From a virus: DNA of 43,942 nucleotides. The stretch covers positions 1 to 43,942 of IMG/VR virus record IMGVR_UViG_3300000969_000009, one strand, 5' to 3'. A model generated the notes under the pieces. That model saw nothing but the letters and a program-made list of their open reading frames with translations, ran no database searches and was not told the DNA's origin. Of this stretch, positions 28,238 through 32,300 are shown piece by piece. The position numbers were made by a program, and so were the translations under genes. Each line of letters starts with the position of its first letter. The first letter of the stretch is position 1.

Positions 28238-30457
28238 TTAGGCAAGCTCATAATGGAACGTTGGCGGATTACTGCCGTTATTGTTATTGCCAGCAGGGAA
28301 CAACAAGCCACTTGTAATATTTGATGGATTCTCATTTGGCGCTAATTGCATAGAAAATAAATGGTTATATGTGCCGTCTGAGTTAACCCTGTTTTCGTAT
28401 GTGATCACGCCGTTAGCAATCGTCGGCAAGACTAGATCTGGGATGTCTGCATAAGGCACAGACTCAACGAATATTTCCAAGTTAATTGCTGATCCTACGT
28501 TACTTCTGAAGTTAACAGCGAACGTGTCTACGTCTTTATTGAAAAAGGTGCTTGTTGCGCCATCTGTATCTAGCGGTAGAGTCGGCTCTAAGCTAGTTTT
28601 AAGTATGTACGTGCTTGGTATAGCAAAAAGACGCGTAAAACTTCCATCAGCGTTCAACTGATTCCATATTGACGTAGCCGTGTTGCTGTATTCTGTTAGA
28701 TCATAAAATTGACCGTCGACAGTATCTTCGTATGTGACGGGCTGTCCTGCTGGCAGATAAGGAAGTGGAATTAATGGCGCTAACTTGTTAGTTAAAATAG
28801 TAATAGAGTCAATGCCACTATTACCACCCACCAAGGCGCGAACTTGCACTTGATTAGAATCAACAATCTGAACACCAGTAGCTAGCCCACCCTCTCTAGC
28901 TACATTAGCCTCATTGTCTAGGAATATCCCTTGCGCCCTTGTTCCATCGCCATAAGTGATTAGAACAATATCCCCGTCGCGCACACCCGATAATTCTGGG
29001 TTAACCGCGCCAATATCTGCATAACTAGGCGTTAAAACAACACCAGCACCAGTAATCACATCAATCCGATTACGAACACTTGTAATAGGAGCTCTAACTT
29101 CAATATTAAGAATACGAACTTCCCTACCACTGTCAGTAATAGATAATTCGCCCGTTAGTGGGTCGATAACATTTATGTTTAAAAAATCATTATCGAAAAT
29201 ATGCACGCTTGCATCTGCTGGTGAGCCAGAAGCAAAATTTCTTAACAGGTCGTCTACATCAATCTGCTGTTTTGCCCAGTTACGTTGATTAGTTAAATCA
29301 TCCTCTGGATTGATAATTAATTCCATTCCAGACATAGACGTCAAGTCAAATCCCAACACTATGTTATTGGGCAATGAGACTGGCGCGTCACTGAAGTCTG
29401 AAAAATGAACTTGGTATATGCCTGTTGGCTCATTAACCAAATTAAGCACACGGTCTTCTTCCTGACGTGGTACTTGTATGCAATCCGCAGGCGCAATGAC
29501 ATCTAATATCAAATTAGCCGCTGAAGAACCTCCGCCAGCAAAGAAATCAATAAATATTTCTTGCCCTGATTCTAGAGAGATTGCGTATTCTTTCTCTGGT
29601 GTAGCAGTGAATAAACGATCACCCTCACCATTGAATAAGTCTTGCGTTCCTTGTGTCGCACCCACATATAAGATTGCACCACTTGAGCCAGTGAAGCCAG
29701 TGCCACTAAATCTAAACGTGTATTCACCCGAGCATGTAGCCGTAAATGAACCAGCGCTTTGACGACCGCCAGCATTGGAAACGCTGAACCCCTCAAATAG
29801 AGGCGGCTGGACTTGCACGCCTAACCCACCAATAGGATTTAACGCCCCATTAAACGAGCTAAACACCTCGCCGTCTATGCGAACTAACGTTTCATCCGTT
29901 TGTAGCTCAAAATCAAAGCCTGAGAGAGTATCGAAGCTAGGAACTACTGCATACAATCCGACAGGTCGCGTAGGCGTTGCGGTCGTGTTCCAATAGTAAT
30001 TACCATTAATACCAAAGCCCAAAGTAGGCTCATCAGCATTAAAATCCAATTGCGCTACAGCATCCACCACTGAGGGCGAGCCATAGCTCGGCTGAGCGTT
30101 ATTACCATTAGATATGCGGCGCTGCCTAGGAAGCCCTGCACTGCCATTAATAGTGTATGTGCCAAAGCCAGAATAAGACTCATTAACACCACCAGCACCA
30201 ACAATGAAGCGCCCCCTGTCTAGCAGAGTAGCGCCGCTATACTCACGCGAGTCAACCTCGAACACACCATTGCCGATTCGAAATAGATATTCTTGATCGC
30301 CAAGCGGGGTTAGTTTAATAAATTCTAACTGATCTTGGTCGTTTAAAGTGTGTGATCTATCACCACTAGACATAAGGTCAGCGGTAAATAGATTATCTCC
30401 AGAAACGACAGCAGTTGAGCCGCCATCACTCGAATTATTTATCGGTTGAACTGGCAT
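28238..30457 (-). CDS. large beta-rich protein, probable virion or fiber-like or carbohydrate-binding protein of unknown family
   Basis: 739-aa ORF, Gly/Asn/Ser/Thr/Val-rich with no recognised motif. It lies upstream of terS rather than with the fiber genes. Confidence 0.45.
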   Translation of the reverse strand: MPVQPINNSSDGGSTAVVSGDNLFTADLMSSGDRSHTLNDQDQLEFIKLTPLGDQEYLFRIGNGVFEVDSREYSGATLLDRGRFIVGAGGVNESYSGFGTYTINGSAGLPRQRRISNGNNAQPSYGSPSVVDAVAQLDFNADEPTLGFGINGNYYWNTTATPTRPVGLYAVVPSFDTLSGFDFELQTDETLVRIDGEVFSSFNGALNPIGGLGVQVQPPLFEGFSVSNAGGRQSAGSFTATCSGEYTFRFSGTGFTGSSGAILYVGATQGTQDLFNGEGDRLFTATPEKEYAISLESGQEIFIDFFAGGGSSAANLILDVIAPADCIQVPRQEEDRVLNLVNEPTGIYQVHFSDFSDAPVSLPNNIVLGFDLTSMSGMELIINPEDDLTNQRNWAKQQIDVDDLLRNFASGSPADASVHIFDNDFLNINVIDPLTGELSITDSGREVRILNIEVRAPITSVRNRIDVITGAGVVLTPSYADIGAVNPELSGVRDGDIVLITYGDGTRAQGIFLDNEANVAREGGLATGVQIVDSNQVQVRALVGGNSGIDSITILTNKLAPLIPLPYLPAGQPVTYEDTVDGQFYDLTEYSNTATSIWNQLNADGSFTRLFAIPSTYILKTSLEPTLPLDTDGATSTFFNKDVDTFAVNFRSNVGSAINLEIFVESVPYADIPDLVLPTIANGVITYENRVNSDGTYNHLFSMQLAPNENPSNITSGLLFPAGNNNNGSNPPTFHYELA

Positions 30458-30729
30458 TACTGAGCCTCAACGTGAATCAAGGCTGAACCATTTTTGGTTC
30501 TCACCCATAGCTCATCAGAGCCAGCGCGATAAGATACCGAGCGCTCTTGAGGGGTAAGCAATCGACCGCTAATTGAATCAGCAGCAGGCATCACGCCCTC
30601 TGCAATAATAACATTACGCTTCCAGCTCTTATGCTGAATATTTACAGCTGTTCCAACCGCAATGCCTGTCGCGTCATTGAGACTAATCCAATCGCGAGAA
30701 ACGGGCGTGTCTGGTATTGTTTGAGGCAT
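30457..30729 (-). CDS. hypothetical 90-aa protein, first gene after the late leader
   Basis: AAGGA lies 8 nt upstream of the ATG. Its stop overlaps the start of the 739-aa gene (ATGA). Confidence 0.6.
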   Translation of the reverse strand: MPQTIPDTPVSRDWISLNDATGIAVGTAVNIQHKSWKRNVIIAEGVMPAADSISGRLLTPQERSVSYRAGSDELWVRTKNGSALIHVEAQ

Positions 30730-30813
30730 AATTTATCCTTGTTTGGTGGCCTTTTGGTCAATAGCGGCCTTGACTAATTTGCAGCCGTGAAGGTGTCACA
30801 ACTAGACCTGCAT

Positions 30814-30845
30814 AAAAAAAGCCCCACGCTATGAAGCAGTGGGGC
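30814..30845 (-). terminator. rho-independent terminator
   Basis: The minus strand reads GCCCCAC (30845-30839), an 11-nt loop, then GUGGGGC (30827-30821), followed by seven U (30820-30814). Confidence 0.75.
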
Positions 30846-30846
30846 T

Positions 30847-31241
30847 CGGGTGAATCCTACATCAAGTTATGCTTGGTTCAGATTCTAGTAAATGACCTTT
30901 TTCAAGGTTTAGTGGCGCATGATCAACTTGCGCCAGCCATACGGGACGCGCCTTTGTATGGTCTTGGTGAGCATGCAAGGGTTGCTTACATGCTGAAATT
31001 AATGCCTTAGCGTTTCTGCATAAGGACTTGGCAGTTGGTGCGAAAAATGCACTAACTGAATCGCCAGCCCTAAGGCAAGCTTATCTCTAGTTGCAACTTA
31101 ACCAACGGGGTCGCCCATCAGATAGAGACATAAAGTAACCGCCCAACTTTTCTTTTAAGTGGTAGCCGCAACGTAGTAGCCCCTAGTTTAGAAAATTGTG
31201 AGTTGTGACGGTTATGTTTTGTAGTTAGCGAATATGTATTT
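30847..31241 (-). ncRNA. candidate structured non-coding RNA or late-operon leader
   Basis: No ORF of 60 aa or more on either strand across 30730-31440. Helices are close-packed at 30852-30885, 30895-30908 (GAAA tetraloop), 30913-30935, 30971-30993 (its G-U pair is valid only on the minus strand), 31004-31076 enclosing 31032-31058, and 31084-31128. Confidence 0.35.
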
Positions 31242-31317
31242 TGGCTGGCAAAGTAGGACTCGAACCTACAACCCACGCATTAACAGTGCGACACTCTACC
31301 AATTGAGCTACTTGCCA
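31242..31317 (-). tRNA. tRNA-Asn (anticodon GUU) with encoded CCA
   Basis: I folded it by hand. Acceptor UGGCAAG/UUUGCCA, D arm GCUC-AAUUGGUA-GAGU, anticodon loop CUGUUAA, T arm GUAGG-UUCGAGU-CCUAC, discriminator G, CCA. Total 76 nt. Confidence 0.9.
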
Positions 31318-31394
31318 TTATTTGTATGAGAAATTTTCAAAAGTATGAAGTTTTATATTTTGTTTTCCGCGTAAAGAACCGCAGATTTACATAT

Positions 31395-31423
31395 ATAAAA
31401 ACACGTTCCGCCAAATTATGCAA
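31395..31423 (-). promoter_or_regulatory. candidate promoter for the tRNA, leader and late transcript (weak -35, extended -10)
   Basis: The minus strand reads TTGCAT (31423-31418), a 17-nt spacer ending in TGT, then TTTTAT (31400-31395). It lies just downstream of the 31441 stop and upstream of the tRNA. Confidence 0.3.
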
Positions 31424-31440
31424 GCCCTAAATGAATAATT

Positions 31441-31731
31441 TCATAAAAACTGCATATACGCCTGCGCAATAACGCCCCCAACTTCATCACCTAGGCAATC
31501 GCACCAAGCAATAACCCTATACTCATGGTTAAAATTGCAGCCAGCAGTAACAAAGTAAGGGGATGATTTATCACCTGCTGCATTTTTCATATAACCAACA
31601 ACAATAGAGTGCGGAACCCCTTTGTCAGCAACCCCGCTAATCAAGGTTAATACGTGCTTTTTTTCTTTTGGCCTTTTCTGCCTATAACCCTTGGATGGAT
31701 CAAAAGGGTGCCACTTTTTACTATCACTCAT
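31441..31731 (-). CDS. hypothetical protein
   Basis: 96-aa ORF. Its start overlaps the upstream stop (ATGA). Confidence 0.65.
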   Translation of the reverse strand: MSDSKKWHPFDPSKGYRQKRPKEKKHVLTLISGVADKGVPHSIVVGYMKNAAGDKSSPYFVTAGCNFNHEYRVIAWCDCLGDEVGGVIAQAYMQFL

Positions 31732-32300
31732 AAAACACCCGCTAAATCCATAAATTTAAGTTTAACGCACCTTAGATGCCTCTCGTATGTTCGCTCTTTC
31801 AGGCCAACCCAATTATAAAAATAATCTCGCATATTCTTGGAGTATTCCCTATCCGTTAGTTCGCCTTGTGGGTTTTCTTGCTTGAATTTATGATTTATCT
31901 CAAGCCTAAAAGTGTACTGGGTATTAATAAAGTTCACGTAACACAATGGAAGCTTAGCGATAACGCCGTTGATATTTTCCATCATCACATCGGTGATCGG
32001 CTCTTGGCTCGGTGTGCTTGAGCCTGTTGTCATTGCGCCAGTCTCACGCTCTATTGCACGGCGTTCGCTGTAATACCAGTTAGACCACTGCCTCAATAGC
32101 TTATTAGCCGCTTCTAGCTTCTTGCGTTGTTCTCTTATGCTTTGAATCGTCTTAGTCTTGCTTAGACGCTTATATTCAGCTTTAAGATCATTTACGAATT
32201 GCTGGTTATTGTCTTCGTCTTGCTCAACATCGCTCAAACGTCGGAATGTATTATTGCGAATGTCCGCGCGTGTCTTTATTTCAATATCTAACTTATTCAT
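31728..32300 (-). CDS. hypothetical protein at the position of a lambdoid late-gene regulator (Q-like position only)
   Basis: 190-aa ORF at the end of the nin-like region, upstream of the tRNA, the leader terminator and the late operon. I recognised no sequence motif. Confidence 0.5.
   Translation of the reverse strand: MNKLDIEIKTRADIRNNTFRRLSDVEQDEDNNQQFVNDLKAEYKRLSKTKTIQSIREQRKKLEAANKLLRQWSNWYYSERRAIERETGAMTTGSSTPSQEPITDVMMENINGVIAKLPLCYVNFINTQYTFRLEINHKFKQENPQGELTDREYSKNMRDYFYNWVGLKERTYERHLRCVKLKFMDLAGVL

Follow-up and report, generated by a model that had tools for sequence, protein, structure and literature searches.

Layout of the locus

The window, a stretch of 43,942 nucleotides (nt) of viral DNA (IMG/VR record IMGVR_UViG_3300000969_000009, positions 1 to 43,942), is a lambdoid-type phage genome. 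The segment under study (30847-31241, minus strand) is dense in hairpins and poor in open reading frames (ORFs). It lies between a tRNA-Asn gene and a strong terminator, within a gap (30730-31440) that is bounded by a 96-aa ORF (31441-31731) and a 90-aa ORF (30457-30729), both on the minus strand. The gene order along this strand was NinB-like, Ref/NinG-like, a 190-aa protein, the 96-aa ORF, the gap, the 90-aa gene, a 739-aa gene, terS, terL and a portal-sized ORF. An earlier note on this DNA proposed the segment as a candidate noncoding RNA (ncRNA), and did not consider the position of a lambdoid late-operon leader. No close relative was found among deposited phages by megablast with half of the window, distant blastn of the gap against deposited phages gave tRNA matches only, and searches of IMG/VR with the flanking proteins gave no relative; exact look-ups of these proteins returned the source contig alone. 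Close genomes number only two. The closest relative, designated L003, is an ENA metagenome scaffold with the same layout, an 872-nt gap and a counterpart of the 190-aa protein that was 73% identical.

The gap is real and non-coding. It had been described as the largest in the genome, and this rank is plausible for non-coding stretches, the other apparent gaps in the window being occupied by abutting small ORFs. The longest ORF within the gap had 59 aa and lay on the plus strand. A coding explanation was rejected because the similarity of this ORF to L003 was confined to 18 residues that coincided with a block conserved at the nucleotide level (B5, see below). The four substitutions fell at codon positions 1, 3, 2 and 3, two of the four were non-synonymous, and the rest of the ORF was unconserved. 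The minus strand of 30851-31241 without the terminator had a folding energy of -109.4 kcal/mol, compared with -94.8 +/- 4.6 kcal/mol for dinucleotide shuffles (z -3.21), and the real segment was better than every one of the 100 shuffles. The z value was -3.69 when the terminator was included, and folding of the plus strand was weaker (z -2.77).

All helices named in the earlier note were present in the sequence where they had been placed, and most of them appeared in the minimum free energy (MFE) structure given by RNAfold. This structure contained the hairpin of a module termed M3 below, ACCUU-GAAA-AAGGU, UGGCGCA/UGCGCCA, a stem of 9-10 bp at 30971-30993, a 10-bp hairpin at 31032-31058 and UCUCUA/UAGAGA. 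The proposed helix GCCUUAG/CUAAGGC fared less well, as its complementarity was present but was unused in the MFE structure and was not kept in L003. The two proposed boundaries were identified, namely the tRNA at one end and the terminator at the other. The search of Rfam with the window at E up to 10 found the tRNA only, plus a sub-threshold PyrR match arising from the hairpin-terminator shape, and no family matched the segment.

A promoter-like block at 31353-31425 (minus strand) consists of TTGCAT, 17 nt, TGT-TTTTAT and a conserved stretch, GTAAATCTGCGGTTCTTTACGCGG, that would be transcribed first. It was 95.9% identical to L003 over 73 nt, whereas the flanking proteins were only 73-78% identical. 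The hexamers were assigned by eye, and a promoter scan chose another, non-conserved pair at 31444-31415. At the other end, the intrinsic terminator (30815-30846, minus strand) is formed by AGCCCCAC..GUGGGGCU followed by U7; the terminator scan placed it at 30837-30821 plus a T-run, and RNAfold lengthened the stem to about 30846-30815. The terminator was conserved in L003 and resembled those of more distant relatives (GCCUCAC..GUGGGGCUUUUUU). It is followed by the conserved 5' untranslated region (UTR) of the 90-aa gene (30730-30814, minus strand), in which the promoter scan gave no sigma-70-like promoter. Terminator and UTR together were about 91% identical to L003. Judged by these alignments, the promoter block, terminator and UTR form a constant frame between the window and L003. 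Unrelated inserts, including one of 250 nt in L003, separate the conserved blocks.

The tRNA-Asn(GTT) gene occupies 31242-31317 on the minus strand (ARAGORN; 65.2 bits for the Rfam tRNA family). In L003, its place is held by a tRNA-Ile(TAT) with its own terminator, and the tRNA is hence taken as swappable cargo. The tRNA-Ile gene (L003:6027-6160) is 92 nt in length with an unusually long variable region, and is followed by its own hairpin and T-run; therefore, the late leader of L003 would have two terminators. An attP site was rejected as an explanation, as the tRNA is intact, is located in the middle of the genome with the regulator on one side and the late genes on the other, and has a different tRNA in its place in L003.

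The 190-aa protein is encoded at 31728-32300 (minus strand) in the position of lambda Q, where its gene closes the nin-like region and comes straight after the NinG/Ref-like gene, and is referred to as the regulator. Two close and about 15 remote homologs were found, the latter at about 25% identity. Where the upstream flank was on the contig, the homologs were always located right after NinG, with an HNH gene sometimes in between. Where the downstream flank was on the contig, a gap of 220-770 nt came next and was followed by late genes of various types. The gaps of the remote relatives contained a promoter-like site, a short leader and an intrinsic terminator ahead of the first late gene. An AlphaFold2 model of the regulator built from 11 sequences (mean predicted local distance difference test score, pLDDT, 78.6) was all-helical; an earlier model from three sequences (pLDDT 63) was unusable. 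When the Protein Data Bank (PDB) was searched with this model by Foldseek, structures of the Q21 antiterminator were retrieved weakly yet repeatedly, accounting for 8 of the top 25 matches (template modelling (TM) score 0.25-0.46, probability up to 0.63, E 0.7-4). The designation Q-like is thus supported by position and only hinted at by the modelled fold.

Separate RNA modules within the segment

Conservation and compensatory changes were detected in related phages, in agreement with a structured RNA. The single ncRNA of about 400 nt akin to GOLLD and ROOL was not supported, as the conserved parts were independent modules that were reordered or stood alone elsewhere. These modules, all on the minus strand, are described in the following in the direction of transcription.

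M1 (31125-31218) is a long irregular hairpin. Its outer stem pairs AACCGUC[A]CAACU, with a bulged A, and AGUUGGGCGGUU, and its inner hairpin is GGGGCU..GCUACC. The remote relatives share a strongly conserved element of the form AAACCCGCCACAAC..AGGGG..CCACUU..UUGGGCGGGUAAUUUAC, which corresponds to M1 and is located past the terminator, directly ahead of the first late start codon. Accordingly, M1 was downstream of the terminator in six relatives (L013, L018, L022, L025, L029 and L031) and upstream of it in the window and L003, where the copies were diverged (79% identity between the two in this region). A covariance model built from seven remote copies only (R2) gave the window M1 as its best match across the two strands of the whole window (24.5 bits, E 2.7e-5) and also found M1 of L003 (E 2.9e-4); the E values of this model and of the second model built here (R3, see below) are rough. 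R2 had a further, weaker match at L003:8598-8668 (minus strand; 20.3 bits, E 0.0015), which is antisense within a 785-aa gene and is probably spurious. Six sequences were independently predicted to adopt the same hairpin fold (z -2.8 to -4.8). Between the groups, the outer stem showed one exchange of C-G to A-U and several changes to or from G-U. With few independent sequences, the covariation support for M1 is modest. M1 was present in every relative that was found with this regulator family and had a readable leader. A generalised M1 pattern otherwise gave only chance coding matches in IMG/VR, where M1 is restricted to this phage group. In the remote relatives (L013:2190-2210, L018:2855-2880 and L022:1140-1165), M1 is preceded by a small hairpin, UAUUCC-loop-GGGAUA, with an invariant stem including a U-G pair and a variable loop; this hairpin is degenerate in the window (about 31219-31241).

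M2 (31084-31128) has an outer helix of 6 bp (UCUCUA/UAGAGA), an inner hairpin AUGGG-CGAC-CCCGU and the conserved unpaired stretches UCUG and UGGUUAAGUUGCAA. It was known in three distinct forms, from the window, L022 and L029, and was absent from L003 and the L013 type. The outer helix of L022 and L029 was CCUUAG/CUAAGG, in which four of the six pairs were changed on both sides with pairing kept. The inner hairpin was CCGAG/CUCGG or CUGGG/CCUGG, and two of the five pairs were changed on both sides, again with pairing kept. Moreover, the unpaired UCUG and UGGUUAA(A/G)UUGC were constant among the forms. This compensation is striking, though the sample is small.

M3 (30847-30888) reads GAAUC, UGAA, C, the hairpin CAAG-CAUAA-CUUG, AUGUAG, GAUUC and ACCCG. 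The unit of M3 plus terminator extends over 30815-30888, and in L022 and L029 M3 follows directly after M2 and abuts the terminator; M3 was absent from L003 and the L013 type. Copies were collected with the pattern GAATCTGAA, a gap of 12-26 nt and TAGGATTCACCCG, which fixes 22 bases and for which no more than a handful of chance matches would be expected in collections of this size. The pattern matched 13 times in IMG/VR and 82 times in the JGI metagenomes, and the matches gave 76 distinct copies from soil, sludge, sediment and marine metagenomes. The pattern was an exact one based on the window, so that the sample is biased toward the window sequence, and the invariance of the outer helix and tail is due solely to their being fixed in the search. 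In the 76 copies, all five pairs of the inner helix had compensatory changes, with 74 double-change cells compared with 19.9 in shuffles (none of the 500 shuffles reached this value). The inner helix was paired in 95% of cases, which fell to 40-72% when the 3' partner was slid by one column. The retention of G-U pairs, including one invariant U-G pair and one commonest U-G pair in M3, agreed with the earlier assignment of the RNA to the minus strand.

A gene for a DUF3800 protein (PF12686) was beside M3 in 38 of the 84 distinct loci. With one exception (64 nt upstream on the same strand), these genes were convergent with M3 and lay 22-50 nt beyond ACCCG. In the 17 DUF3800 loci where a sigma-70 match reached 9/12 or more, the -10 hexamer ended 6-8 nt before GAAUC in 15, indicating that the RNA would start at M3. 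A terminator-like hairpin with a T-run adjoined M3 in 27 of the 38 DUF3800 loci and in 22 of the 46 others. Hence, M3 in the DUF3800 loci is predicted to be a free-standing RNA gene of about 75 nt. The model R3, built from the DUF3800-adjacent copies only (98% paired), gave M3 as its sole match in the window below E 0.1 (39.2 bits, E 1.2e-7). The viral copies were mostly orphans: DUF3800 was beside M3 in only one of the 13 IMG/VR stretches, and the other viral copies were in 5' leaders after promoters or within tRNA clusters of 2-3 genes on short contigs. No DUF3800 ORF was present in the window, and its M3 is thus an orphan representative of a small-RNA motif that is widespread.

Eleven structurally unrelated DUF3800-associated motifs (I-XI) have been described, many with 3' terminators and with no function assigned (Weinberg et al. 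2017; PMC5737381), and Rfam 15 includes DUF3800-I (RF02969) and DUF3800-IX (RF02968) (PMC11701678). No DUF3800 family of Rfam 15 matched the window (E up to 10) or any of the M3 loci searched, namely 20 with the gathering score as the limit and 12 with E up to 1; 10 of these 12 had a DUF3800 ORF called beside M3. By these comparisons, M3 looks like a further, apparently undescribed class of DUF3800-associated RNA.

Several M3 loci differed in arrangement. A subgroup with the inner helix CCUCGCC..GCGGG (L070, L081, L089, L103, L111, L120, L123 and L134) had no terminator and carried instead the long hairpin GUCGGGAUUGGCGG...CCAAUCCUAGACC; several of these copies were preceded by a conserved GGAGCUACGAUGGCC...GAUGCUCC hairpin and may belong to a larger M3-containing RNA. 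M3 was found within or beside clusters of 1-3 tRNA genes on short contigs (L135:177-572, L155, L120:1476-2034 and L140), the order in L135 being tRNA-Leu, M3, tRNA-Leu and tRNA-Tyr. In L076, L092, L141 and L151, the cassette of DUF3800 and M3 adjoined a tRNA-Asn(GTT) that was 82-88% identical to the tRNA of the window, probably as an island at a tRNA site. L138 had a tRNA-Asn near M3 and no DUF3800 ORF called.

The remainder of the segment (31083-30890), which is about half of it, was common to one close relative only or was unique to the window. Block B4 (AAGUCCUUAUGCAGAAACGCUAAGGCAUUA, 31000-31029) was conserved only with L003 (93% over 30 nt). It contains a mini-ORF of four codons, ATG CAG AAA CGC (31007-31021), which ends in TAA in the window and TGA in L003; this is the sole L003 substitution in the mini-ORF and retains the stop, and no Shine-Dalgarno sequence was evident. 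Block B5 (30912-30965), with the hairpins CCAUAC..GUAUGG and UGGCGCA..UGCGCCA, was likewise conserved only with L003 (92.6% over 54 nt). Two of its four substitutions yield G-U pairs on the minus strand, one is in a loop and one breaks a terminal pair. The 10-bp hairpin, the hairpin of 9-10 bp (30971-30993) and ACCUU-GAAA-AAGGU, a GNRA hairpin (30895-30908), were predicted by RNAfold in the window and had a counterpart in none of the fetched loci.

A probable late-operon leader and its alternatives

The segment is probably, though by no means certainly, the transcribed non-coding leader of the phage late operon, composed as a mosaic of separate RNA modules in the slot that holds pR', 6S and tR' in lambda. 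Transcription would start at the conserved promoter just downstream of the regulator gene. The transcript would carry the tRNA-Asn and then the chain of hairpin modules, and would halt at the strong intrinsic terminator, beyond which the conserved 5' UTR leads into the genes for packaging and structure. For read-through to these late genes, the 190-aa regulator would be needed as an antiterminator of the Q type, possibly one similar to Q21. The tRNA and an RNA ending in M3 are the cargo of a slot that starts at the promoter and stops at the terminator, and could hence be made without activation of the late genes. The predicted terminated transcript of the window ends in the M3-plus-terminator unit that is a stand-alone RNA elsewhere. 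What the analysis shows is the anatomy and synteny of the locus, the conservation and covariation of the modules, and that M3 belongs to the wider motif. The activity of the promoter, antitermination through the regulator, any processing of the transcript and any function of its modules in trans are what we infer beyond this.

The content of the slot varied among relatives. In the window, it contained the tRNA and M1 to M3 along with further hairpins. The slot of L003 had M1 and the tRNA-Ile that carries its own terminator, the slot of L022 had M2 and M3 together with a small ORF, and that of L013 was empty. The leader is a mosaic whose modules were shuffled among related phages, in which M1 travels with the regulator family and M2 and M3 are optional.

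Several points weigh against this leader model. The promoter, terminator and read-through are all predictions, and the promoter hexamers are weak, with TTGCAT matching three of the six positions of the -35 consensus. The regulator had no match by sequence to Pfam, PHROG, any Q family or a PDB chain, and the Q21 fold matches were individually non-significant (TM below 0.5, E as given above), with extracytoplasmic function (ECF) sigma factors also among the matches. The conservation of B4 and B5 with L003 is not accounted for. That M1 is kept in phages whose late genes differ points to a specific role, for which the model has no explanation. Furthermore, the conserved UTR past the terminator could conceal an activator-dependent late promoter, in which case the stretch from promoter to terminator would be an independent RNA gene.

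The alternative that survives best is compatible with the leader model. It holds that M3 is functional cargo acting on the host. Bacteria would pair the M3 RNA with DUF3800, perhaps as a toxin-antitoxin-like or defence module, and the orphan phage copy, made from the leader slot, would mimic that RNA and thereby neutralise or subvert DUF3800, with the pseudo-ToxI RNA of phages as a precedent. This is possible, though we regard it as unlikely. It draws on the frequent DUF3800 neighbours of M3 and the predicted start of the RNA at M3 in those loci, on their near absence beside the viral copies, window included, and on the occurrence of M3 inside tRNA clusters of 2-3 genes, as for other cargo RNA genes. 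Moreover, the RNase H-like domain DUF3800 has been connected with mobile elements and with defence loci (PMC10910872, PMC13594972), and is linked to the 11 other RNA motifs (PMC5737381). On the other side, no function is known for DUF3800 or any partner RNA, the DUF3800 protein that was tested matched no PADLOC model, and nothing indicates that the phage host carries DUF3800. The association may also be reversed, with DUF3800 inserted next to an RNA that is common on mobile elements, and the M3 sample carries the bias of its search pattern. The narrower proposal that the phage makes its orphan M3 in a regulator-independent slot as an anti-defence decoy against DUF3800 systems, or hijacks them otherwise, is somewhat more doubtful still.

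A further alternative takes the modules as cis-acting regulatory RNA in the manner of nut/N, HK022 put or a protein-dependent attenuator, with M1 as the binding site of the regulator or M3 acting on the terminator. The strict co-occurrence of M1 with the regulator family, the position of M1 between promoter and terminator in the window and L003, and the terminator-like hairpins that M3 abuts argue for it. However, M1 is past the only terminator in the six relatives named above and cannot act on the terminator there, many relatives with the same regulator have no M3, and M3 in the DUF3800 loci has no downstream gene in the same orientation to regulate. A cis-acting role is thus improbable on balance. 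For a Q-binding element and a sigma-dependent promoter-proximal pause, through which a Q protein is loaded onto RNA polymerase, the sequences give hints only, namely the conserved block at the predicted start of the transcript and dyad symmetry in the promoter spacers of relatives. In the promoter regions of the remote relatives L018 (2600-2680), L022 (488-560), L029 and L031, the spacer has a 5-bp inverted repeat (CACTG..CAGTG). These regions also have in common AAAAACTTGCAAT, located upstream of the promoter, and GGGUGC..AGGGUUGAGUAAUGCGCC, a conserved hairpin that would be transcribed early. All three are candidates for regulator binding or pausing; at this place, the block of the window and L003 is a different one.

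It is quite improbable that the segment is recombination debris, in which remnants of decayed genes and module junctions surround a tRNA and a terminator that alone are functional. The architecture is indeed mosaic, and a vestigial ATG follows M1 in the window exactly where the relatives start their first late gene (ATA in L003). The L003 leader also contains a degenerate duplicate of a downstream UTR motif: AGTCAAGGCCGCT, located before the 90-aa gene, occurs at L003:6532-6544 and L003:6727-6739, and the duplicate is followed by the UTR in degenerate form, suggesting past duplication or recombination. However, selection on the structures is shown by the compensatory changes within M2 and M3, and by an M1 that is conserved between phages with proteins of only about 25% identity. 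The single integrated ncRNA of about 400 nt with cooperating helices, a smaller analogue of GOLLD or ROOL in line with the earlier note, draws on the hairpin density and folding z value, the tRNA neighbour, the terminator boundary and the conservation of parts, and is the least probable of all because the modules are neither kept together nor in the same order: no long-range helix is conserved, M3 stands alone in about 80 other loci, L003 lacks M2 and M3, and three hairpins are unique to the window.

Among the flanking genes, the 96-aa ORF between the regulator gene and the promoter block has no assigned function; its place is taken by a 109-aa ORF in L003 and by none in more distant relatives. 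The 90-aa gene matched phrog_4770, and its homologs in large lytic phages were not syntenic. The 739-aa gene (28238-30457, minus strand), located between the leader and terS, had no Pfam or PHROG match and is an unusual occupant of the pre-terminase position; its counterpart in L003 has 785 aa.

All scans of sequence collections used exact patterns, so that they under-sample the diversity of M1 and M3 and favour copies close to the window sequence. Exact patterns of B4, B5, the promoter block and the window-type M1 core gave chance coding matches or nothing in IMG/VR and nothing in the JGI metagenomes and GTDB genomes. All 27 matches of the L013-type M1 18-mer in GTDB genomes were due to chance, and no prophage or host was identified. 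Short-query blastn for M3 among deposited phages gave chance matches only, and Pfam searches of the truncated neighbours of orphan M3 copies were uninformative.

These results bear on three subjects. The uncultured phage group shares an unannotated regulator family in the Q position, with a cognate promoter and terminator and a co-travelling M1, which together look like a compact new late-gene switch. M3 would be a new RNA family without an Rfam model, connecting phage leaders with the partnerships of DUF3800 and RNA that were reported in 2017 and are still unexplained, and its orphan phage copies suggest an arms-race hypothesis; if the decoy proposal is true, M3 would be the twelfth, so far undescribed partner RNA of DUF3800 and the first clue to the role of these RNA-protein pairs. 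For genome scans, the segment is a caution that dense hairpins in a gap may belong to several independent modules in a row and not to one large RNA.

Comparison with known systems

A phage-encoded pseudo-ToxI RNA counters the ToxIN type III toxin-antitoxin system. M3 offers a possible analogy, as an RNA that has a protein partner in bacteria and occurs in the phage as an orphan. The arrangement differs, as DUF3800 and M3 are convergent and not in tandem and M3 has no repeat array, and nothing shows DUF3800 and M3 to be a toxin-antitoxin or defence pair. With GOLLD and ROOL, the segment shares a phage-borne, tRNA-adjacent, structured and non-coding character. It differs from them in length (395 nt compared with about 580-800 nt), in its lack of a match to either family model even at E up to 10, and in its independently occurring modules without a conserved long-range architecture.

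The M3 family resembles the DUF3800 motifs in that it is small, has a covarying structure, is followed by a Rho-independent terminator and adjoins DUF3800 genes, although in the opposite orientation; both come from soil, sludge, sediment and marine metagenomes. It was, however, matched by no Rfam model, and DUF3800 genes are missing from the neighbourhood of the window M3 and of most viral copies. The window M3 differs further from the DUF3800-linked copies in being embedded in a longer leader and not having its own promoter.

In the late leader of lambda, the pR' promoter, the 6S RNA and the tR' terminator are under Q antitermination. The window leader is longer (about 580 nt compared with about 190 nt), carries a tRNA and conserved structured modules, and is followed past the terminator by the 90-aa gene, the 739-aa gene and terminase instead of a lysis cassette; its regulator has no sequence match to the Q families of lambda, 82 or 21. 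The likeness to lambda lies in the arrangement. In the window and its relatives, the regulator gene is the last of the nin-like region after NinG and the late genes are downstream, and a promoter-like block comes next, from which a non-coding transcript would run to a strong intrinsic terminator before the late genes. The tRNA in the window leader also has its parallel in Shiga toxin (Stx) phages, in which tRNA genes are located in the same neighbourhood.

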